Shown here one piece after another: positions 30,407 through 62,363 of a stretch of DNA of 64,000 bases. The notes beneath the pieces are model-generated. The model was not told the origin of the DNA. It saw only the letters and a program-made list of their open reading frames with translations, and did not search any database. Source of the DNA: an uncultured Alphaproteobacteria bacterium (lineage in GTDB: Bacteria > Pseudomonadota > Alphaproteobacteria > HIMB59 > GCA-002718135); NCBI GenBank assembly GCA_902573325.1, contig CACGJH010000004.1, positions 49,285-113,284 of the forward strand. The letters run 5' to 3'. The position numbers were made by a program, and so were the translations under genes. Position 1 is the stretch's first letter; each line of letters begins with the position of its first letter.

Positions 30407-33159
30407 TTATAACTTCTCAATTTTTGCTGCACAATATTTAAATTCAGGAATTTTTCCATATGGATCTAAAGCTGGATTAGTTAAAAGATTAGCAGCAGAT
30501 TCATTATAACAAAATGGAATAAATATGACTCCATCAGGAATCGCCCTGTCTTGCCTTACTCTAATATCTATTGAGCCTCTTCTAGTTGTGACTTTTATTT
30601 TATCACCAGCTTTCATATTATTTTTAATTATATCTTTAGGTGATATTGAAACTGAAGGTTCTGGTTCGATAGCATCTAAATTTGATGCCTTTCTAGTCAT
30701 AGCTCCAGTATGCCAATGCTCTAATTGTCTTCCTGTGGTTAGTATCATTCCAAATTCTTTATCAGGTACCTCATCTGGTGCAGTAACACTAGCTGGAACA
30801 AATTTACCTTTACCATTTTCGTTTGGAAATTTATCACCAAAAACAATTTCATCTCCGGGTGTAGTTGGAGATTTACTTGGATAAGTTACAGAGTTTTCAT
30901 TTTCTAATCTTTCCCACGAAATATTGTTTAAAGAAGGCATTGTTAGTGACATTTCTTCATAAATTTCCTTGGGATGATTATATTTCCAATTTAAACCCAT
31001 TCTTTTTCCAAGTTCATTTGTTATCCACCAATCTTCTTTAGCTTCACCTGGAGAGTCTAAAGCTTTTCTTCCCATCTGTACTTGCCTATTAGTATTAGTA
31101 ACTGTTCCATTTTTTCAGGCCATGCTGAAGCGGGGAAAATAACATCCGCATATGTTGCTGTTTCAGTTAAAAAAATATCTTGAACAACTAAATGCTCTAA
31201 CATTTGTAGAGCTTCTCTTGCATGATTTAGATCAGGGTCAGACATTGCTGGATTTTCACCAAGTATATACATACCTTTAATTGTATTCTCGTGAATAGCA
31301 TCCATAATTTCAACAACAGTTAGACCTTTTTTATCATCTAGAGGAGTGTTCCAAAGTTTTTCAAAGAAATCTCTATTATTATTTTTATCAACTAATTGGT
31401 AATCGGGATACATCATGGGTATAAGACCGGCATCAGACGCTCCTTGAACATTATTTTGTCCTCTTAAAGGATGTAAACCTGATCCTCTTTTTCCAACATT
31501 ACCTGTCATCAAAGCAAGAGAAATTAAACATCTAGCATTATCCGTACCATGTGTGTGTTGAGAAACCCCCATCCCCCAAAAAATTATTCCTTTATTTGTA
31601 TTGGCATATAAGCGTGCTACTTCTCTTATAAGTTCTGGATCGATACCTGTTTCGTTTTCCATTATATCAGGTGAATAATTCATTAAATGTTTTCTTAATT
31701 TTTCAAATCCTTCAGTTTGTTTTTTAATATATTCGGAATTAAATAAATTTTCTTCGACAATAACATTCATTATTGAGTTTAAGAGAGCAACATCAGATCC
31801 TGGTTTAAATTGTAACATATGAGTTGCATGTTTTTTTAAGGAATGGCCTCTAGGATCCATCACAATTAATTTAGAACCCTTTTTAGCAGCATTCTTAAAA
31901 AAAGTTGCTGCAACAGGATGGTTTTCAGTAGGATTTGCTCCAATGACTATTATTACATCTGAATGTTCAACTTCATAGAATGGAGCCGTAACAGCTCCTG
32001 AACCAATAGTTTCCAATAAAGCAGCTACAGAAGACGCATGACAAAGTCTTGTACAATGATCAACATTATTTGTATTAAAACCAGTTCTGATTAATTTTTG
32101 AAATAAATAAGCTTCTTCATTTGAACATTTAGCTGATCCAAAACCTGCAAGATTACTCTTACCATTTCTTTGTTTATTAAGTTTTAAAAATCCTTCTGCA
32201 GCATAATCTAGAGCTTCATCCCAAGATGCTTCTCTAAAATATTCATGAACATTCGAAAAATTAATACTTGGGTGTAAGTCTTTTGCTTTACCTTTAATTC
32301 TAATCAATGGCTTTGTAAGTCTTTCTGGATTATTTACATAATCAAAACCAAATCTTCCTTTTACACATAATCTATTCTTGTTTGCGGGACCATCAACACC
32401 ATTAACATATTTAATTTTGTTATCTTTTACATTGTATTCTATCTGACAACCCACACCGCAATAAGGACAAACGCTATCAATTTTTTTATCTACCTTGCTA
32501 TGGCCAACACCATCTTTATCTACAATGGATGCTGGCATTAATGCTCCAGTTGGACAAGCCTGTACACATTCACCACATGCCACACACGTGCTATCACCCA
32601 TTGGATCATCAAAATCAAATACAATTTTAGAATTTTCTCCTCGATATGCCATTCCGATGACATCGTTGACCTGAACTTCTCTACATGCTCTTACACAAAG
32701 ATTACATTGGATGCATGCATCTAGATTTACAGCCATACTAGGATGAGAAACATCTGCTTGACATGAAGTTTTTTTTGGAAATCTACTTTCTTTAACTTCA
32801 ACTTTTTCTATCCATTTCCAAAAGTCAGAATTATTATCATGAGCAATTTCTTTTTTTGGCTGGTCAGCTAGAAGTAATTCAAAAACTAACTCTCTAGATT
32901 TTTTAGCCTTTTCTGAAGAAGTTTTTACTTTCATACTATCAGTTGGCTTTCTAATACAAGATGCTGCCAACACACGCTCTCCTTCAATTTCAACCATACA
33001 TGCTCTACAATTTCCATCTGCTCTATAGCCAGGTTTATCGGAATAACATAAATGTGGGATTTCTGTTCCAAGTCTATTTGCAACTTGCCAAATAGTTTCA
33101 TCAGCATTTGCTTCAACTAATTTTTCATTTAAATAAAATTTTATTTTTTCTTTAGTCAT
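30407..33159 (-). pseudogene. fdsA: NAD-dependent formate dehydrogenase alpha (catalytic Mo/W-bis-MGD) subunit, interrupted by a 1-nt frameshift
   Basis: Two track ORFs, 31057..33159 (700 aa) and 30407..31075 (222 aa), together make one FdsA/FdhA-type protein. It has an N-terminal 2Fe-2S motif (CYSDKPGYRADGNCRACMVE), 4Fe-4S clusters (CIQCNLCVRAC, CVACGECVQACP) and an MGD domain (VDHCTRLCHASS). The frame changes at the A6 run, which is T6 on the plus strand at 31110-31115. Confidence 0.9.
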
Positions 33160-53227: not shown

Positions 53228-55132
53228 TTAATTAGCTGTTGCAGAAGCTGATCCACCAGTTTTAGGAACAGATGGCGATGTTTTTGGAGGAGTATTATCG
53301 ACATCATTTCCAAATTCATCCCTTGAAGGCTTAATACCATTCAATAAGTCTTTTATCTCATCACCTGTAAGTGTCTCATATTCGAGTAGACCTTTAGCTA
53401 TAATATGTAACTGATCAATATTATCATTAATAATCTTTCTAGCTTTAGTTTTAGCTTCTTCAATTAGACGCTTCACTTCTTCATCAATAAGTTGGGCTGT
53501 ATCGTCAGATAGATTTTTAGATTGTGTAACAGAGTGACCCAGAAATACTTCTTCTTGATTGTTTGTATATCTTATAAACCCTAATTTATCACTAAATCCA
53601 CATTCAGTAACCATCCTTCTAGCTAGATTAGTTGCCATTTGAATATCACCTACGGCTCCTGTTGCAACCTTATCTTTACCAAAAATAATTTCTTCAGAAA
53701 TTCTAGCAGCGACCATTTCAACTAATTGTGCCTCAAGCTGATCTTTTCTTTGGTGAACTTTATCTTTCTCAGGAACTGACATTACATATCCAAGTGCTCT
53801 GCCTGTTGGAATTATTGAGCTTTTATATATAGGATCTGATTCCTTACAGTGAATATTTGCAAGAGCATGTCCAGCTTCATGATATGCTGTTATTTCCTTA
53901 TCTTCTTTAGTCATTACCATAGATCTTCTCTCTGAGCCTAACATTACTTTATCTTTGGCATATTCAAAATCTTCTAATGTAACCATTCTTTTGTTTTTTC
54001 TAGCAGCCATTAAAGCTGCTTCATTAACTAGATTTGCTAGATCAGCTCCTGAAAATCCTGGTGTTCCTCTTGCTATAATTTTTGTGTCGAACTTAGGAGA
54101 AACTTTAATTTTTTTTATGTGTACTTTTAAAATTTTGTCACGGCCAAGTATATCTGGATTTGAAACTGTAACTTGTCTATCAAATCTTCCTGGTCTTAAT
54201 AAAGCAGGGTCTAATACATCAGGTCTGTTTGTTGCAGCAACAATTATAACTCCCGCGTTTGCCTCAAAACCATCCATTTCAACAAGTAGTTGGTTAAGTG
54301 TTTGCTCACGTTCATCATTACCACCACCAAGACCAGCACCTCTATGACGACCAACTGCATCAATTTCATCAATGAATATTATACAAGGAGCATTTTTCTT
54401 TCCTTGTTCGAACATATCTCTAACTCTACTTGCTCCAACACCAACAAACATTTCAACGAAGTCAGAACCAGAAATAGAAAAGAAAGGAACATTAGCTTCG
54501 CCTGCAATTGCTCTGGCTAGTAATGTCTTTCCTGTACCTGGAGGTCCAACTAAAAGAGCACCTCTTGGAATTTTTCCACCTAATCTAGAAAACTTTGAAG
54601 GATCTTTTAAAAACTCAACAACTTCTTCTAATTCTTGTTTAGCTTCATCAATACCTGCTACATCGTCAAATGTAACTTTACCAACTGCTTCATTTAATAA
54701 TTTTGCTTTAGATTTACCAAAGCCCATTGCTTTTCCGCCACCACCTTGCATTTGACGCATAAAGAAGATCCATACTCCAATTAAAAGCAGCATTGGGAAC
54801 CATGACAATAATACACTTAGTAGTGGATGCATTGAACGCTCTGATGGTTCAGCAGTTATTTTTACACCATTTTCATTTAACTTATCGACAAGATTTGGAT
54901 AATTTGGAGCGTAGGTACTAAATGAACGACCATCATCGAGAAAACCTGTTACCATATTTCCACTTATATTTACCTCAGAGACATTTCCACTTTCAGTAGC
55001 TGCTATGAAGTCAGAAAAAGGTATTTTTGAAGTATTTCTATTATTAGAAGATCCCTGGAAAAGATTGAAAAGCACAATTAAGAGCAACCCAATTATAATC
55101 CACAATACAACATTTTTACTGATGTTTTTCAT
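53228..55132 (-). CDS. ftsH: ATP-dependent zinc metalloprotease FtsH
   Basis: 634 aa. Two N-terminal TM segments, the AAA motif [13 protein letters not shown], and the zinc site HEAGHAL. Confidence 0.98.
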
Positions 55133-55183
55133 CTACTTATTACATAGGAATTTATTATAAAAACACAATAGTTTTGTAGAAAA

Positions 55184-56155
55184 TTAAACAGTTTTTCTTA
55201 AAAATGTTAGAAAATCATCATTTTTTTTAACTATCATACCCTTAATATTAAAATTATTAAAATTTAATTTCTTCATTTCACTGATTAAGATTCTAGTTTT
55301 TTTTGATCGTGGCGCATTAGATTCATAAAATAAAAATTGATATATTCTTCGTATAATATTTTCAGAATTAATTTCATTCAAATTTTTCATATTATCAAGA
55401 CCAACAATAATTTTTTTACTATCAATCTTAATAATATTTTTGAGAAGTATCTCATATATCATTTGAATGAAATATGGTGAATAAAAAAGTATGCTCTCAA
55501 AATCTTTATTTATTTCTTTAATAGTTTTTTGGTCAGATTTTTTAAGAAAATTTCTTATTGTAGGACGAGTATAATCTAAATTAAAATTTGATGGATCATT
55601 AATATATTCTATTTTATTTTTCTTATTGTAGTTCAATAATGCATCTTTAGAAAAATTTAAAAGCGGTCTAATTATGCAAACTTTATTATAAAGTGAGAAT
55701 TCCGACATTGATTTTAAACCATAAAAGTCACTTCCAGCTATCTTTCTATTCAAAAAAGTTTCTAAATTATCATCTTTGTGATGAGCAACAAATAAATGCA
55801 AAAAATTATTTTTAATACAAAAATCTGTAAGTAAATTATAACGATTATTTCTAGCCTCATTCATACTTTTCTTACTAACATAATCTTTATCTACAGTTAG
55901 AATTTGTGAATTAATGTTGTTGTTATCCAAGTATGTAGAAATATATTTTGCTTCCTCTTTAGAATTTTTTCTAATACGATGATCAACGATTAAAGCCATC
56001 AAGTTTCCTTTTTTGTATTTTATAAAAGTATTTACAAGGAATAATAATGACATACTATCCGGACCACCTGAAACTGCGACAGCAACTGACGGGTTTTTTT
56101 CAAAAGTATATTTTTTTTCTATGTTTTTAATGAATTCTTTATTGGTGAGCTTCAT
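55184..56155 (-). CDS. tilS: tRNA(Ile)-lysidine synthase (short form)
   Basis: 323 aa with the PP-loop AVSGGPDSMSL and the canonical position upstream of ftsH. Confidence 0.85.
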   Translation of the reverse strand: MKLTNKEFIKNIEKKYTFEKNPSVAVAVSGGPDSMSLLFLVNTFIKYKKGNLMALIVDHRIRKNSKEEAKYISTYLDNNNINSQILTVDKDYVSKKSMNEARNNRYNLLTDFCIKNNFLHLFVAHHKDDNLETFLNRKIAGSDFYGLKSMSEFSLYNKVCIIRPLLNFSKDALLNYNKKNKIEYINDPSNFNLDYTRPTIRNFLKKSDQKTIKEINKDFESILFYSPYFIQMIYEILLKNIIKIDSKKIIVGLDNMKNLNEINSENIIRRIYQFLFYESNAPRSKKTRILISEMKKLNFNNFNIKGMIVKKNDDFLTFLRKTV

Positions 56156-57066
56156 TCATTATTATCTAAGCAATTATACTCAACAATTTGTTTTTTTGTT
56201 TGAGGAATTATTTTATTTTTAGGAAAATCTATAATTAATTTTTCCATAGTTTTACAAGCCTCCGTAGTTTTTTCAACTTGGTATAATGACTGTGAAAGTT
56301 TGAAAAGCATTTCTGCAGCTTTAATACTATCTGGAAATTTTTGGAAACCTTCTGCAAATATAAGTGCTGCTTCTCTATAATTTTTTTCTAGAATGTATAG
56401 TTCTCCAAGCCAATAATGTGCTGAACCTGATAGTTGATTGTCAGGATTATTTAAAATAAATTGTTCAAATGCGGTTTTGGCATCCTGCCATTTTTTATCT
56501 CTGATATTATCAAATGCTACCTGAAATTGATCTTCAGGTGATAACACCTCCTCTTTTTCATTGGAATTTACTTCTTGATTGTCAGATACAACTTCATCAT
56601 TTGTATCATTTGTATTTTTTGATATATTTAATGTTCCAAGTGTATTCTCAGTTTCAGTATCACTTAAAGTATTACTATTAACCTTAGAACTATCTTGTGA
56701 AGCTTCATCAGTATTTTCAACATTATTTAAAGGAACTGATTGTAAATTATTAATAACTAATTCTAAGTTTTCTAACTTATTTAAAATATCGTCTAATTGA
56801 AAATACAGTTCCTCTAAGTTTGAAGTTAAATTTTTTATATCGTTTTCAATATCATATATTCTCAAATCGATAGCAGAAAGATTCTTTACAAAATCATTAT
56901 TTGTTCCACTTAATTGACTTGATGAATTTGAAAATACTTCTTTAGAAAGATCAGAAACTTCTCTTTGTAATCTTTCTAATTGCTGGTTGATTGTAAGTTC
57001 ATTTTCATTAGAATAAATATGAGTTGAAAAAAAAAGAATTAAAAAAATGAGTATGTATTTAAACAT
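56152..57066 (-). CDS. cpoB: Tol-Pal system protein CpoB/YbgF (coiled coil + TPR)
   Basis: The track start at 57069 is TTG. ATG 57066 gives the signal peptide MFKYILIFLILFFSTHIYS. The protein has an N-terminal coiled coil, an acidic N/S/T/E-rich linker, and a C-terminal TPR region (..AHYWLGELYILEKNYREAA..). Confidence 0.8.
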   Translation of the reverse strand: MFKYILIFLILFFSTHIYSNENELTINQQLERLQREVSDLSKEVFSNSSSQLSGTNNDFVKNLSAIDLRIYDIENDIKNLTSNLEELYFQLDDILNKLENLELVINNLQSVPLNNVENTDEASQDSSKVNSNTLSDTETENTLGTLNISKNTNDTNDEVVSDNQEVNSNEKEEVLSPEDQFQVAFDNIRDKKWQDAKTAFEQFILNNPDNQLSGSAHYWLGELYILEKNYREAALIFAEGFQKFPDSIKAAEMLFKLSQSLYQVEKTTEACKTMEKLIIDFPKNKIIPQTKKQIVEYNCLDNNE

Positions 57067-57092
57067 CAAAAGATTTTAATTTCTAATTAAGA

Positions 57093-57124
57093 TAAAAATG
57101 TGGCGCCATATTTCTATAGCGCCA
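57093..57124 (-). terminator. Candidate intrinsic terminator/attenuator after pal
   Basis: GC-rich stem: tggcgc (57101-57106) pairs with gcgcca (57119-57124). On the minus-strand transcript it is followed by CAUUUUUAUC. It lies 23 nt after the pal stop and before cpoB. Confidence 0.5.
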
Positions 57125-57146
57125 AGTATTAAGGAAAATAAATAAA

Positions 57147-57668
57147 TTAATTAACTATTGTTACCGATCTTCTATTTTGAGCCCATGCTCCATCGTTAGA
57201 TCCAACAACGGCAGGTCTTTCTTTACCATAACTAATAGTTGAGACTCTATCAGGATTTATTCCTAATCCAATTAGATAATTTTTAACAGCTTGAGCTCTT
57301 TTTTCTCCAAGAGCTAAGTTGTACTCTCTAGTTCCCCTTTCGTCACAGTGTCCTTCAATGGTTACTGAAACATCACTATTTTGCTTAAGCCATGCAACTT
57401 GATCTTGAAGTAACTCTAAAGCGTCAGAGTCTAAATCTGAACTATCATATCCAAAAAATACTCTGTCTCCAACATTAACAATTAAATCTTCTTGTGATCC
57501 AGAAACTATTCCACTTCCAGTGGTTTCAGTAATAGTTCCTTCTGAAGAAACGTCACTTCCGGAACTACTTGATCCTGAACCTGAAGAGTCAGCTGAGTCT
57601 TTTGGTGTTGTTGCACAAGCTGCAACAAATAAAACCATAAATATAGAGATAAAAAACTTGTAAAACAT
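57147..57668 (-). CDS. pal: Peptidoglycan-associated lipoprotein Pal (OmpA-like)
   Basis: 173 aa. Lipobox LFVAAC, a Ser/Gly-rich linker, and the OmpA domain ..IEGHCDERGTREYNLALGEKRA. Confidence 0.95.
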   Translation of the reverse strand: MFYKFFISIFMVLFVAACATTPKDSADSSGSGSSSSGSDVSSEGTITETTGSGIVSGSQEDLIVNVGDRVFFGYDSSDLDSDALELLQDQVAWLKQNSDVSVTIEGHCDERGTREYNLALGEKRAQAVKNYLIGLGINPDRVSTISYGKERPAVVGSNDGAWAQNRRSVTIVN

Positions 57669-57769
57669 AAATAATTGCTCCCTTAATACTTTGAGTAGAT
57701 ATACTAAATTATTAAGAGTTCCTTAACATTTTTTTCAGAATTTCGTATATTTTTTTGTATTATATTGAA

Positions 57770-59086
57770 TTAATGCATCAAAGGAGACCAAGCAGGGTCA
57801 GACCCTCCTAATGGCGTTATTACTTTTCTTTCATTATAACCGGTTAAATCTATAGAATATAGACTGGATTCACCGCCTGATCCGTCCTCAGCAGTTCTCT
57901 CTTCTTTAAAGTACATCAAAAATCTGCCATTTGGAGCCCATGTAGGCCCCTCTACATGGAATGATTTTGCAATCATTCTTTCATTTGAGCCATTAATCTC
58001 CATAACACCTATGTAAAATTGCCCCCCTTCTTGTTTAGTGAATGCAATCATATCACCTCTTGGAGACCAAACTGGTGTGTAATAACTTCCTGCTTCCCGG
58101 CTGATTCTTTTAACATTTTTTCCATTATTATCACTTACATACAAATGTCTTCTTCCACTTCTATCTGAATTAAAAACTATTTTTTTTCCATCTGGTGAAA
58201 AACTTGCTGAAACATCAATTGAAGAATTATTAGTAACTCTTTTTGAAATTCTTGTTTTTAAATCAAGAATATAAATTTCAGAATTACCAATTTCTGGATC
58301 AGTGTAAGACATGATGATTTGATTTCCGTCAGGTGAAAAACGAGGAGCAAATGTCATTCCTGGAAATTCCCCTACAATTTCTTGTTTCCCAGTTTCAATA
58401 TCAAAAATGTAAACTCTTGGATTATTTCTATTTACATAAGACATGTATGTTATTTTTTGTGAATTAGGAGAAAACCTTGGAGTTAATACTAAGTATGATC
58501 CATCTGTTAAAAAACGATGATTTGATTGATCTTGGTCCATTATTGCTAATCTTTTTTGTTTATTTTCTTTTGGGCCTGTCTCAGCAACGTAAACTATTCT
58601 TGTATCAAAGTATCCACCTTCACCAGTGATATTTTTAAAAATAGAATCAGATATAATATGAGCAACCCTTCTCCAATTTTTTTCATTAGTCTCATATTTT
58701 TTTCCTATTATCTGCTTTTGTTGAAAGACATCAAATAGTCTGAATTCTACAGATATTTTACCATTGTTTGTTGAAATTTTTCCTGAAACTAAATGCTGAG
58801 CCTTTATTAATTTCCAATCTTCAAATCTTGGTTTGTTTGCCAATGATTCATTGTCTTGAATAAATGATCTTTTATCTATTGGTAAAAAAAGCCCAGACCT
58901 TTCTAAATTATCTGAAATAACAGTTGAAATATTTTTACCTACTTTAGTTAATTGTGAATTTTTTGAATATAGCTCTGTTACAGCTATTGGAGTTGGCTTC
59001 ACACTACCTTGTGTTAGAGTCACTTCTAATGAATGGACTTTTAAACTCGAAAATAAAAAAAAGGTTATTAAGAAAACTTTTTTCAT
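57770..59086 (-). CDS. tolB: Tol-Pal system beta-propeller protein TolB
   Basis: The track start at 59089 is TTG. ATG 59086 gives MKKVFLITFFLFSSLKVHS. Repeated ..P.FSPDG..I.. propeller blades. Confidence 0.95.
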   Translation of the reverse strand: MKKVFLITFFLFSSLKVHSLEVTLTQGSVKPTPIAVTELYSKNSQLTKVGKNISTVISDNLERSGLFLPIDKRSFIQDNESLANKPRFEDWKLIKAQHLVSGKISTNNGKISVEFRLFDVFQQKQIIGKKYETNEKNWRRVAHIISDSIFKNITGEGGYFDTRIVYVAETGPKENKQKRLAIMDQDQSNHRFLTDGSYLVLTPRFSPNSQKITYMSYVNRNNPRVYIFDIETGKQEIVGEFPGMTFAPRFSPDGNQIIMSYTDPEIGNSEIYILDLKTRISKRVTNNSSIDVSASFSPDGKKIVFNSDRSGRRHLYVSDNNGKNVKRISREAGSYYTPVWSPRGDMIAFTKQEGGQFYIGVMEINGSNERMIAKSFHVEGPTWAPNGRFLMYFKEERTAEDGSGGESSLYSIDLTGYNERKVITPLGGSDPAWSPLMH

Positions 59087-60156
59087 CAATATCCTTTCAT
59101 AATACTATAATCAAAAGTAATTGTAAGATTTTTCCATAGATTATATTTATCTTTTGGAAGTTTTAACGGTGTACATTCTGGGTTTAAAAGAGTTCTCATT
59201 GCGCTATCTGTGATTGGTCCATAAAATGGATTAGTTTTAGCTATATTTGTGTCAACAATGCGGATGCTACTTGGTGAAACCTTCATATTTTGTAATATTT
59301 TTGCTGAAATTGTTACTTTGTCTCCTCTTTCTATAACTGCACCTGCTGGAGCATTCCAACAAGAAGATAATTGCTGCCTCAACATGTCTATTTCAGATAT
59401 TGATAGCATAATATTGTCATCAGTATCATCTGTACTTTTATTATCAACCTCTTCAACCTCTTCCTTAACTTCATTTTGAACCATATTTGTTTTTTCATTT
59501 CTTAAATCTTTAAGCATTGATGCTATGCTAAAATCTTTCTCAGGTTTCGGCTTTGGTTTAGATACGGTTTTATCATTTTCCAACTTTGGTTTATCCTTAA
59601 TGTTTGTTTCAACATCTAAATCTGATTTAACATTTTCATTATTTATAATTTTTGGCTTTGGCTTGAGTTTTGGTTTAATTATATCAGTTTTAATTGTTTC
59701 TACTTTTTTCTTAACCTCTAAAATTTCCTTTTCTTTGATAACTACTTTTTTTGTTTCCTTAACTTCTAAATTTGGAGTTTGTTTCATTTCCAAAACTGGT
59801 TGATTTGGATTAGTTTTTTCTTCAATTTCAATTTTATTTATTTCAACATTTTTTTTTACTTCTAATTGATCTGATGAATTAAATTTTTTTTGCTTAGTAA
59901 TTGTTTCCTTATTTTTATTTTCTGGTTTTTCAGTATCAGATTTTTTTAAATTTGTATTTTCATCAACATTAAGTATTTCAATAGGTATTACGTTTGGAAC
60001 ATAGATTTCTTTTGTAGAAAAAAAATTTGGTAAGCCGACCATAAACAAAAGGATAATTAAATGTATTAATGTTGAAAAAATAACTCCTGATGTTTTAGGA
60101 TTTAAATTTTCAAAAAAGTTTATAATTTTTAAACTATTATAGCTTATACGATCCAT
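59086..60156 (-). CDS. tolA: TolA-like protein (N-terminal TM, Lys/Glu/Pro-rich spacer, C-terminal TolA/TonB-like domain)
   Basis: 356 aa in the position between tolR and tolB. It has a TM helix GVIFSTLIHLIILLFMVGL and low-complexity KPKLKPKPK/E-K stretches. Confidence 0.75.
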   Translation of the reverse strand: MDRISYNSLKIINFFENLNPKTSGVIFSTLIHLIILLFMVGLPNFFSTKEIYVPNVIPIEILNVDENTNLKKSDTEKPENKNKETITKQKKFNSSDQLEVKKNVEINKIEIEEKTNPNQPVLEMKQTPNLEVKETKKVVIKEKEILEVKKKVETIKTDIIKPKLKPKPKIINNENVKSDLDVETNIKDKPKLENDKTVSKPKPKPEKDFSIASMLKDLRNEKTNMVQNEVKEEVEEVDNKSTDDTDDNIMLSISEIDMLRQQLSSCWNAPAGAVIERGDKVTISAKILQNMKVSPSSIRIVDTNIAKTNPFYGPITDSAMRTLLNPECTPLKLPKDKYNLWKNLTITFDYSIMKGY

Positions 60157-60585
60157 CTATTGCTCAAGATTTTGAGTAATTAATGCAACTTTAATATATC
60201 CTGCTGAATTTATTATGGACATAATTTCCATAATCCTTCCATAAGCTACTACTCTATCACCTCGTATATAAATTCTTGCTTCTGTGTTTTGTTCAGTTAT
60301 TGCGTTTAGTCGAGGAATTAAATTTTCTACTTCAACCTTTGATTCTCCAATGTAGACTTGTCCGTCTAACTTAACGGTTATCTCGATTGGATCTTTAATA
60401 TCAGTTAATGCAGTGGCTTTAACCTTTGGTAAATCAACTTTTATTCCAACAGTCAGAAGAGGAGCGGTAACCATAAAAACAATTAGTAAAACAAGCATAA
60501 CATCTACAAAAGGTGTAACGTTAATTTCACTCATTTGAGTGTATCTTTGTTTCTTACGTTTGTTTAAATTATTTGAGGTAATCAA
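60157..60585 (-). CDS. tolR: Tol-Pal system protein TolR (ExbD family)
   Basis: 142 aa with MSEINVTPFVDVMLVLLIVFMV. The track start at 60585 is TTG. The basic N-terminal tail resembles other TolR proteins, and ATG 60534 is an alternative start. Confidence 0.9.
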   Translation of the reverse strand: MITSNNLNKRKKQRYTQMSEINVTPFVDVMLVLLIVFMVTAPLLTVGIKVDLPKVKATALTDIKDPIEITVKLDGQVYIGESKVEVENLIPRLNAITEQNTEARIYIRGDRVVAYGRIMEIMSIINSAGYIKVALITQNLEQ

Positions 60586-60586
60586 T

Positions 60587-61300
60587 TTATTTTTTCTCTA
60601 ATTGTCTAAAAAAAATTGTTGAGAATTCATCCATAAATGTTTCCAATGATATGAAGTATTTTGATAAATCGTTTGAAATTTTATTGTACGCAACTACAGC
60701 AGGTATAGCTACAAAAAGGCCTAATGCTGTTGCAAATAGCGCCTCTGCAATTCCTGGAGCAACTACTGCTAAATTAGTATTTTGTGCAATTGCGATAGAT
60801 TTAAAACTATTCATTATGCCCCAAACTGTTCCAAATAATCCTATAAACGGGGCAGTTGATCCAGCAGTTGCGAGGAATGTTAAATTTCTTTCAACATTTT
60901 CACTTTCTTTATTAAAAACAACTGTCATTGATCTCATCATTCTATCTTTTAAAGAATTAATATCAGATGTGTCATTTTCAAACTGAGTTTTACTTTTTTT
61001 CCACTCTAAAATTGCAGCACAAAACAATTTTGATTTTGGATCTGTCTGATTAAAGTTTAAAGTTTCATATAAATCTTCAAATGAATTTCCAGACCAAAAA
61101 AGATCTTCAAATTCTTTTTCAAGTTTTTTTAATTGTCTAATTCTTAAAATTTTTGAAATTATTACATTCCAAGAATAAAGAGAGGCTAAGATTAATATTA
61201 TAATTACAGATTTGACAACAATGTCAGCTTGCATGAATAATGCAAGCATTGAAAAATCTGGTGCTTCTGTCGATAAATTTGTACTATTAATATCTGCCAT
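60587..61300 (-). CDS. tolQ: Tol-Pal system protein TolQ (MotA/ExbB family)
   Basis: 237 aa, 3 TM segments, with ..LATAGSTAPFIGLFGTVWGIMNSF..VAPGIAEALFATALGL. Confidence 0.95.
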   Translation of the reverse strand: MADINSTNLSTEAPDFSMLALFMQADIVVKSVIIILILASLYSWNVIISKILRIRQLKKLEKEFEDLFWSGNSFEDLYETLNFNQTDPKSKLFCAAILEWKKSKTQFENDTSDINSLKDRMMRSMTVVFNKESENVERNLTFLATAGSTAPFIGLFGTVWGIMNSFKSIAIAQNTNLAVVAPGIAEALFATALGLFVAIPAVVAYNKISNDLSKYFISLETFMDEFSTIFFRQLEKK

Positions 61301-61305
61301 AATTA

Positions 61306-61599
61306 TTATTTTTTAATTTTTTCAAGATCGCTACTATGAACCATAACCCAAAACCCTGGTCTATTTTTTTCACATAATGCTATTACTGGTGTCTTACCCT
61401 CCTCTTTCGCAAGTTTTGCAGTATCATCCCATAAACTAATTGCTGTATGTTTTGCTCTTAGTTTACATTCTATAAATAATTCTTCATGGATTACATCAGC
61501 TCTTGTCACTTTACCATTACCGCCACTCAAAGGTGTCCTTTTCCCATTGAAATAGTTTGCAACGTCTCTTTCTCTTTTTTTCCAGGCTTTATCAGGCAT
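61306..61599 (-). CDS. Small PD-(D/E)XK-type nuclease-like protein with Hjc-like (archaeal Holliday-junction-resolvase-like) motif order
   Basis: 97 aa with ATG at 61599 and AAGGA 7 nt upstream. Motifs occur in the order E10 (KKRERD), S25-G-G, D35 (RADVI) and E44-x-K46 (FIECK), followed by hydrophobic strands TPVIAL and GFWVMV. Lies 14 nt after yebC and 5 nt before tolQ. Confidence 0.55.
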   Translation of the reverse strand: MPDKAWKKRERDVANYFNGKRTPLSGGNGKVTRADVIHEELFIECKLRAKHTAISLWDDTAKLAKEEGKTPVIALCEKNRPGFWVMVHSSDLEKIKK

Positions 61600-61613
61600 C
61601 TATATTCCTTTCA

Positions 61614-62363
61614 TTAGGCTGTGAGTGAAGATAGAACATTATCATCAACTTCAAAATTTGATGATACAACTTGAACGTCGTCATTGTCTTCTAAAACTTC
61701 AAGTAATTTAAATAGTTTGTCCGCTGTTTCTTTTCCAATATTTATATTATTTTTACTTTTCCAAATTAAATTTGCAGAGTTAGTCTGCCCATACTGTTTA
61801 ATTAATTTATCATTAAGTTCATGCAAATGGTTTTGATCACAGTATATTGAATATTCTGTTTCATTAATTTCATAATCTTCACTATTATTTTCAATGAGAA
61901 ATTCTAAGAGTTGATCTTCTTTTACTAAGTTTTTATCGAGAGTGATATTTCCAAATCTGTCAAAACCAAAACTAACACTTCCTGTTTCACCCAAATTGCC
62001 TCCATATTTACTAAAAGAAGACCTAATCTCAGCAGCTGTTCTATTTTTATTATTTGTAAGTGCCTCAACTATTATTGCAATACCTTCAGGGCCATATCCT
62101 TCATATCTTACTTCTTCATAATTGCTATCAGGATCATTTCCTTGACCTTTTTTTATTGCTCTCTCAATATTATCTTTTGGCATATTGAGTGACTTGGCCG
62201 ACGAAATTGCAGATCTTAATCTAATATTACTCTCAATATCTTCACCTCCTACTTTAACAGCAACAGAAATTTCTCTTCCAAGTCTTGAGAAAACTTTTGC
62301 TCTTTTTTTATCTTGAGCACCTTTACGATGCATAATATTTTTAAATTTCGAGTGCCCTGCCAT
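61614..62363 (-). CDS. yebC: YebC/PmpR-family DNA-binding regulator
   Basis: 249 aa with MAGHSKFKNIMHRKGAQDKKRAK.F.RL.REI. Confidence 0.93.
   Translation of the reverse strand: MAGHSKFKNIMHRKGAQDKKRAKVFSRLGREISVAVKVGGEDIESNIRLRSAISSAKSLNMPKDNIERAIKKGQGNDPDSNYEEVRYEGYGPEGIAIIVEALTNNKNRTAAEIRSSFSKYGGNLGETGSVSFGFDRFGNITLDKNLVKEDQLLEFLIENNSEDYEINETEYSIYCDQNHLHELNDKLIKQYGQTNSANLIWKSKNNINIGKETADKLFKLLEVLEDNDDVQVVSSNFEVDDNVLSSLTA

Follow-up and report, generated by a model that had tools for sequence, protein, structure and literature searches.

A candidate phage-derived PD-(D/E)XK junction-resolving nuclease in the ruvC position of SAR11 bacteria

Nearly all free-living bacteria carry either RuvABC or RuvAB together with RecU, and SAR11, a free-living and hugely abundant group, is listed with none of these four proteins. 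In the survey from which that listing derives, organisms containing RuvC always contain RuvAB as well, and RuvAB is absent from fewer than 2% of bacteria, mostly parasites (PMC3403352). The same survey documents the adjacency of YebC subgroup I genes to ruvC, places YbgC and TolB among the top STRING partners of RuvABC, and in its Table S1 scores Candidatus Pelagibacter ubique HTCC1062 and Pelagibacter sp. HTCC7211 as positive for YebC and negative for RuvC, RecU, RuvA and RuvB (PMC3403352). Here we analyse a window of 64,000 nucleotides (contig CACGJH010000004.1, positions 49,285 to 113,284) in which a 97-amino-acid open reading frame (ORF) lies between yebC and tolQ, on the minus strand at positions 61306 to 61599 including the stop codon. 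We annotate its product as a putative PD-(D/E)XK Hjc-like, phage-type junction-resolving nuclease, on the basis of the ORF list, a match to the phage family PHROG_2002, an hhalign comparison with the archaeal resolvase Hjc and the ratio of nonsynonymous to synonymous substitution rates (dN/dS). In the reading that we favour, the gene is probably a domesticated phage nuclease that displaced RuvC in place.

A precedent for such an event is RecU, a PD-(D/E)XK resolvase that has taken the place of RuvC in Firmicutes and Mollicutes (PMC3403352). The two cases differ: RecU is a protein of about 200 amino acids with a stalk region that coexists with RuvAB, is encoded far from ruvAB and has no sequence match to the window protein, whereas in SAR11 RuvAB, too, is listed as missing, and the new gene stands in the old ruvC position. 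RuvC itself resembles the window ORF in its position, beside yebC and upstream of tol-pal, and in its presumed cellular task, but it has a DEDD RNase H fold as opposed to a PD-(D/E)XK motif and shares no sequence similarity with the window protein, and no RuvAB partners are reported in Pelagibacter. With Hjc (PF01870; structures 1GEF, 1HH1 and 2WCW) the window protein shares the predicted order of secondary-structure elements, the E...D...E-x-K series and a small single-domain architecture; it differs in that its family occurs in bacteria and phages, not archaea, and in that the similarity lies below the Pfam threshold. PHROG_2002, finally, is matched by the window protein along nearly its whole length, and relatives of the latter lie in phage replication modules, but the window gene is fixed on the chromosome of a free-living bacterium, within an operon of housekeeping genes, and is more strongly constrained than its neighbours.

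When the single ORF protein was searched against the sequence libraries, PHROG_2002, which bears the name ‘Holliday junction resolvase’, was the sole significant match (E=3.2e-10; residues 3-94, that is 92 of the 97, against profile positions 16-112 of 130). The sole Pfam line for the protein, Fip1 (E=0.13), was discarded as noise. An exhaustive hidden Markov model (HMM) search of 1.84 billion representative proteins assigned 1052 clusters (50% identity) to the family with a cut-off of E<=1e-3, and 609 with the stricter cut-off of E<=1e-10. Our family alignment comprises 102 full-length divergent relatives, 39-88% identical to the window protein, 88 of which match PHROG_2002 themselves (best E=7.8e-11). 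Residues E10, R21, G26, D35 and K46 are invariant in this alignment, and W6, K7, A14, S25, E44, L56, A64, E67, K69, P71 and G82 are each shared by at least 90% of the relatives. The PD-(D/E)XK signature is present as an acidic E10 in helix 1, followed by D35 and then by E44-C-K46. On the minus strand, the predicted active-site codons span positions 61462 to 61572 (E10 at 61570-61572, D35 at 61495-61497, E44 at 61468-61470 and K46 at 61462-61464, with R21 and S25-G26 included in the span).

Below threshold, the 102 relatives yielded Pfam matches to PDDEXK_15 (13 sequences), Hjc (one, E=0.028) and UPF0102 (one). The matches to PDDEXK_15 (PF24608, a phage putative PDDEXK endonuclease) and to UPF0102/YraN are consistent with the same superfamily, but the window protein itself has no match to either, and those of its relatives stay below the curated cut-offs; YraN, moreover, is widespread on chromosomes, has no assigned function and is not linked to ruv. 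One IMG entry in a SAR11 cluster is already named ‘Holliday junction resolvase’. We consider it very probable that the ORF encodes a PD-(D/E)XK nuclease of a phage resolvase-like family, one that the curated libraries lack and that has so far been catalogued only among predicted phage families. Three other identities were rejected. RuvC (PF02075) gave no Pfam or NCBIfam match, and the motif is of the PD-(D/E)XK type; RecU (PF03838) was matched neither by the window protein nor by any of the 102 relatives; and RusA (PF05866) gave no Pfam match, the conserved residues being E/D/E-x-K, which differs from the Asp-rich active-site pattern of RusA.

As a separate observation on the family, 21 of 150 representatives (P0124, P0129, P0135, P0137, P0140, P0144 and others) are 150-180 amino acids long and carry a partial domain repeat. 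In these proteins the full domain is followed by a second copy of its C-terminal half (approximately profile positions 45-97, covering helix 2, strands 4-5 and helix 3), and this second copy lacks the catalytic N-terminal half.

The relation to Hjc was assessed against an alignment of Pyrococcus furiosus Hjc (the protein of PDB entry 1GEF), 14 Thermococcales homologues with PF01870 and three Hjc/Hje sequences from the PDB, in which E9, R10, F21, R25, D33, E46, K48, F68 and K81 are invariant and S29 is nearly so. Alignment of the window family to Hjc by hhalign gave a score of 25.45 over 79 aligned columns (P=0.0023). Naming the family residue first and the P. furiosus residue second, the pairs are E10 with E9, R11 with R10, F17 with F21, R21 with R25, S25 with S29, D35 with D33, E44 with E46 and K46 with K48, and the hydrophobic segments PVIAL and GFWVMV are paired with PVLAV and GWRFIEV. 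The E-R pair of helix 1, the arginine that ends strand 1 and the serine of the glycine-rich loop are all in register. The catalytic residues of Hjc are E9, D33, E46 and K48.

A null from column shuffles of the Hjc alignment (n=200) had a mean score of 11.8, a standard deviation of 2.3 and a maximum of 21.5, with none of the 200 reaching 25.45 (z of about 6), and a reversed-alignment control scored 11.0. An Hjc HMM exceeded 5 bits with 153 of 382 family sequences versus one of 382 shuffled ones, a count that is supporting and not independent because the sequences are interrelated. We read these scores as pointing to a real but remote superfamily homology, with the active-site architecture of Hjc, and not to membership of PF01870.

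Two AlphaFold models were made, one from a shallow SAR11 alignment (predicted local distance difference test score, pLDDT, 63.7) and one from the 102-sequence alignment (pLDDT 90.2). In both, the order of elements is alpha-beta-beta-beta-alpha-beta-beta-alpha, the strands of the confident model being very short by DSSP. Compared with BFVD, the confident model matches predicted phage proteins (E 3e-5 to 2e-3, template modelling (TM) score up to 0.81), some of which are named Holliday junction resolvase.

The original prediction, made from the letters of this stretch, had proposed an Hjc-like nuclease on the strength of E10, D35, E44-C-K46 and the two hydrophobic strands TPVIAL (residues 70-75) and GFWVMV (82-87), and all of these are found where it had placed them. 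None of the outcomes that it had named as refuting was encountered, and its interpretation is supported. Profile searches lend it a significant match, to PHROG_2002, and a weaker one, above the null, to Hjc. The E/D/E-x-K residues on which it depended are conserved, the glutamate of the E-x-K step being the one position among them that varies within the relatives. The Foldseek comparison proposed with it had a divided outcome: predicted phage proteins in BFVD are matched, and PDB entries are not.

The ORF starts with ATG, ends with TAA and encodes MPDKAWKKRERDVANYFNGKRTPLSGGNGKVTRADVIHEELFIECKLRAKHTAISLWDDTAKLAKEEGKTPVIALCEKNRPGFWVMVHSSDLEKIKK. Its 374 close homologues have no Pfam domain on record, and the identical protein occurs on 833 contigs under the NCBI name ‘hypothetical protein [Pelagibacteraceae bacterium]’, which places the window in a SAR11 genome. 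A scan of a species-level genome collection with a SAR11-level alignment found a relative in 168 genomes, all at least 92% identical; we examined the loci of the best 80, mostly single-cell genomes, together with seven metagenome loci that extend the range down to 72% protein identity. In all of the resulting 87 Pelagibacteraceae loci the ORF is present as a single copy in the same position, and the order yebC-ORF-tolQ is kept with the same tiny spacers. The ORF has changed less than the genes on either side: in locus L083 it is 94.8% identical to the window copy, compared with 74.7% for yebC and 81.6% for tolQ, and in the more distant L013 the corresponding values are 72%, 59% and 67.5%.

The dN/dS of the ORF is 0.014-0.07 against ten other SAR11 genomes (Nei-Gojobori; dS 0.3-2.2, saturated), and that of yebC is higher at 0.04-0.20. 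The comparison was ungapped, and the tolQ values in divergent loci were disregarded as indel artefacts. The GC content of the ORF (0.35) and its third-position GC content (GC3, 0.21) fall inside the range of the neighbouring genes, and thus neither measure gives a compositional signal of horizontal transfer. The number of homologues, the 833 identical copies and the low dN/dS show that this is not a chance reading frame; the ORF is a genuine gene, strongly constrained and better conserved than the housekeeping genes beside it. One of the syntenic loci, L076 (NHJW02000023.1), comes from a metagenome-assembled genome (MAG) named ‘Gammaproteobacteria bacterium TMED225’. It is a typical SAR11 yebC-ORF-tolQ locus (identity to the window 97% for the ORF, 96% for yebC and 96% for tolQ), and a binning error for the contig or a wrong classification of the MAG is the probable cause.

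With yebC on one side and tolQ on the other, in the window and in every SAR11 locus examined, the ORF fills the ancestral ruvC position. That a single tiny gene replaces the whole ruvCAB-ybgC segment had been proposed at the outset; as far as position is concerned this is borne out by the 87 loci and by the linkage of ruv with ybgC and tol genes described elsewhere (PMC3403352). On reading the ORF lists, we see no ruvA, ruvB or ruvC and nothing resembling ybgC in the whole 64 kb. SAR11 belongs to the most abundant and most strongly recombining bacteria of the ocean; recombination up to about 60-fold more frequent than mutation is cited for it (PMC3448164), and some form of junction processing is therefore to be expected in these bacteria. 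In-place displacement within a conserved operon is, in our view, good circumstantial evidence of equivalent function. Searching the literature on SAR11 or Pelagibacter and ruv or Holliday junctions, we found no paper that links this ORF family to displacement of RuvC.

Outside SAR11, the family has a different setting. We surveyed the contexts of relatives 55-67% identical to the window protein; several others were on contigs of 1-2 kb, which are uninformative, and all of the informative contexts are phage or prophage. On a 764-kb bacterial contig, genes for AAA_24, DUF669, DEAD helicase and Prim-Pol proteins lie upstream of the relative. A 69-kb element combines it with integrase, terminase, AAA_24, SSB, exonuclease and DnaB genes, a further element with integrase, pRha and helicase genes, and a 55-kb phage contig with sliding clamp, DnaB and SSB genes; on a small contig it adjoins a cI/Cro-like switch. 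None of the non-SAR11 contexts examined places a relative next to yebC or tol genes. Conversely, the window ORF is itself chromosomal and lies outside any phage replication or recombination module. The initial suggestion of an archaeal or phage-type resolvase can accordingly be narrowed: these contexts mark the gene as being of the phage type and not of the archaeal one.

Two relatives form part of longer proteins. In Bacteroides phage BS162P1 (OP172706.1, locus L006, 5323-6315) a 330-aa coding sequence (CDS) that bears the annotation ‘DNA endonuclease I-HmuI’ begins with NUMOD4 and HNH_3 domains and closes with 92 aa that share 47% identity with the window protein. Either the two parts are truly fused, or a homing endonuclease inserted upstream and was merged with the relative by annotation. 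In P0258 (318 aa) the C-terminus of the domain is fused to a uracil-DNA glycosylase (UDG) superfamily domain (PF03167, E=7.6e-18), which makes this protein a DNA-repair fusion.

The phage copies closest to SAR11 come from IMG/VR, where five marine phage contigs (L097-L101) carry copies 77-78% identical to the window protein. One of the five has primase and helicase genes upstream of its copy, and in L099 the copy directly precedes the genes for the terminase large subunit, portal, protease and major capsid protein. In phages, the gene is thus found either closing the replication and recombination module or immediately ahead of the terminase gene, which is the usual site of enzymes that cut branched DNA before packaging. 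The GC content of these contigs is 27-34%, like that of SAR11, and for this reason we regard them as probably pelagiphages. In a rough neighbour-joining tree, the IMG/VR phage group is nearest to the SAR11 chromosomal group. These phage copies suggest recent gene flow between SAR11 and its phages. A mixed sequence was also seen: in P0112 (99 aa) the N-terminal 40 residues are like those of divergent phage-type variants (…SGGSSRHTRSDSLH…) and residues 41-90 are identical to the window protein, so that it looks either like a recombinant of a phage-type and a SAR11-type allele or like a chimeric assembly.

With the gene, its conservation, family, motif and context in hand, we infer nuclease activity, dimerisation, junction specificity and replacement of RuvC, and propose the following mechanism. 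The protein would be laid out as an N-terminal helix bearing E10-R11, a short strand ending in R21, a phosphate-binding loop at S25-G26, one strand carrying D35 and the next carrying E44-x-K46, and then a helix, two further strands and a C-terminal helix. A phage copy would have become fixed in the SAR11 chromosome between yebC and tolQ, the slot that holds ruvC-ruvA-ruvB-ybgC in many proteobacteria. Its product would be a small, Mg2+-dependent and structure-selective endonuclease, acting as a homodimer that binds the four-way DNA junctions made by RecA, with E10, D35 and E44 holding Mg2+, K46 positioning the attacking water, and R11, R21, S25 and nearby lysines contacting the DNA backbone. 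Paired nicks across the four-way junction would leave nicked duplexes for ligation. Since RuvAB is reported absent, the enzyme may work without this motor, as phage resolvases do, or else with another translocase such as RecG or RadA. A wider proposition is that SAR11 lost the whole of RuvABC and now relies, for resolving its recombination intermediates, on a 97-aa enzyme taken from its own phages, whose gene fills the slot left by ruvC and apparently continues to be exchanged with marine phages of low GC content; on this, our judgement is evenly balanced.

Several results weigh against a junction resolvase that took over from RuvC, and the main weakness is structural. Foldseek found no PDB neighbour of the confident model better than E=0.96. 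Hjc of Archaeoglobus fulgidus, P. furiosus and Sulfolobus, together with tRNA-splicing endonucleases, are the top PDB neighbours of the low-confidence model only, at non-significant E-values of 0.05-0.3 (0.05-0.1 for Hjc) and TM of about 0.5; RecU chains follow for that model at rank 34 or lower (E=0.43). Sequence searches have similar limits. Searches of Pfam, NCBIfam and the PDB with the single ORF protein returned no usable match, the 102-sequence profile found no NCBIfam match, no PDB chain and no curated PD-(D/E)XK model at threshold, and the window protein does not match Pfam Hjc (PF01870) at the curated threshold. The hhalign probability for the Hjc alignment is only 12.6%, and the protein, with its 97 aa, falls 25-45 residues short of the characterised Hjc proteins. 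The name of PHROG_2002 is a predicted annotation, and the looseness of such labels is illustrated by PHROG_244 (‘RusA-like’), which 20 of the 102 relatives match. Turning to the genomic side, the reported absence of RuvABC rests on a TBLASTN survey from 2012 that covered two strains (PMC3403352). In addition, the SAR11 core includes a cluster, SAR1131, described as a ‘putative Holliday junction resolvase’ (PMC3686209). This cluster may be YqgF/RuvX, or it may be the ORF itself; in the former case another resolvase would be possible.

The immediate surroundings of the ORF bear on how it is expressed. The upstream spacer, from the yebC TAA to the ORF ATG, is TGAAAGGAATATAG on the minus strand (14 nt) and contains a Shine-Dalgarno sequence, AAGGA, at positions 61606 to 61610 (minus strand), with 6 nt between its end and the ATG. 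Directly upstream lies yebC (TACO1/YebC family, 249 aa; 61614 to 62363, minus strand; PF20772 and PF01709 on the syntenic orthologue). Downstream, the ATG of tolQ (MotA_ExbB family, 237 aa; 60587 to 61300, minus strand; PF01618 on the syntenic orthologue) follows 5 nt past the ORF TAA, and the block tolR-tolA-tolB-pal-cpoB-tilS-ftsH continues colinearly on the same strand (53228 to 60585). Genes were taken from the ORF lists, and the Pfam labels of the window neighbours were transferred from the syntenic loci L001 and L013. A scan of the two spacers for promoters and terminators gave no signal above shuffled expectation, which fits co-transcription of the ORF with yebC and tolQ. In all these points, the reading frame and its length, the Shine-Dalgarno sequence, both spacers and the order from tolQ to ftsH, the sequence agrees with what the original prediction had described. 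Elsewhere in the window, the gene for the formate dehydrogenase alpha subunit (30407-33159, minus strand) is apparently split into two overlapping ORFs in different frames, one of 700 aa (31057 to 33159) and one of 222 aa (30407 to 31075), with an overlap of 19 nt; a frameshift, a pseudogene or a mistake in the assembly may lie behind this.

Motif and family evidence point to a nuclease and not to its substrate, and the alternative that survives best is therefore a PD-(D/E)XK nuclease with another task, such as incision at stalled or reversed forks, flaps, D-loops or other repair intermediates, with junctions left to YqgF/RuvX, RecG or dissolution by helicase and topoisomerase. Phage enzymes encoded at such genomic positions are often broad branched-DNA nucleases, as exemplified by T4 endonuclease VII and T7 endonuclease I, and the UDG fusion points to general DNA repair. 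The core cluster described as a putative resolvase (PMC3686209) may likewise leave the junctions to a different protein. We nevertheless think this alternative unlikely: the gene occupies the ruvC slot beside yebC in every SAR11 locus examined, RuvC and RecU are both reported absent (PMC3403352), and the best remote match among characterised proteins is a junction resolvase, Hjc, with catalytic and DNA-binding residues in register.

Given that the family is overwhelmingly phage-borne, that low-GC marine phages carry copies similar enough (77-78%) to suggest ongoing exchange, and that one phage copy shares its CDS with homing-endonuclease domains (NUMOD4 and HNH), we also considered a phage-derived selfish or conflict gene (a restriction-like nuclease, toxin, homing element or anti-phage factor) without any housekeeping role. 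Such a gene would hardly be expected as a single copy at a fixed position in all 87 SAR11 loci, including those with as little as 72% identity, with native composition and a dN/dS (0.014-0.07) that makes it more conserved than its housekeeping neighbours. The 14- and 5-nt spacers leave no space for regulation of its own, there is no PADLOC match, and no methylase or antitoxin partner is adjacent. We judge this explanation to be very improbable. YebC is now regarded as a translation factor. Least credible of all is a function tied to YebC or Tol-Pal, for example as an RNA-directed or non-catalytic nucleic-acid-binding protein: it would account for the tight co-transcription with yebC and tolQ in every genome examined and for the tRNA-splicing RNA endonucleases among the fold neighbours of the low-confidence model, but yebC and tol flank ruvCAB in other bacteria without known functional coupling (PMC3403352), so that the neighbourhood would be inherited from the displaced genes, the non-SAR11 relatives in the contexts examined are never beside yebC or tol, and the conserved acidic triad with its lysine argues for phosphodiester catalysis.

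For a domesticated phage resolvase in place of RuvC, much is already familiar: the kind of enzyme from Hjc, RecU and phage proteins, the kind of event from the replacement of RuvC by RecU, and the predicted label from the phage family. The apparent novelty lies in the capture of this phage family by SAR11, on the chromosome, throughout the order and in the ruvC slot, combined with the reported loss of RuvAB. A conserved candidate resolvase makes the completion of recombination in SAR11 directly testable on one small protein. If our reading is correct, the family would represent a minimal, motor-independent type of bacterial Holliday junction resolvase that is absent from Pfam and NCBIfam, and SAR11 would provide the second independent displacement of RuvC by a PD-(D/E)XK enzyme after RecU, this time from a phage source and in place. 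A phage family with over 1000 clusters and only a predicted label would also gain an experimental footing, and hundreds of Pelagibacteraceae entries now called ‘hypothetical protein’ could gain a name.

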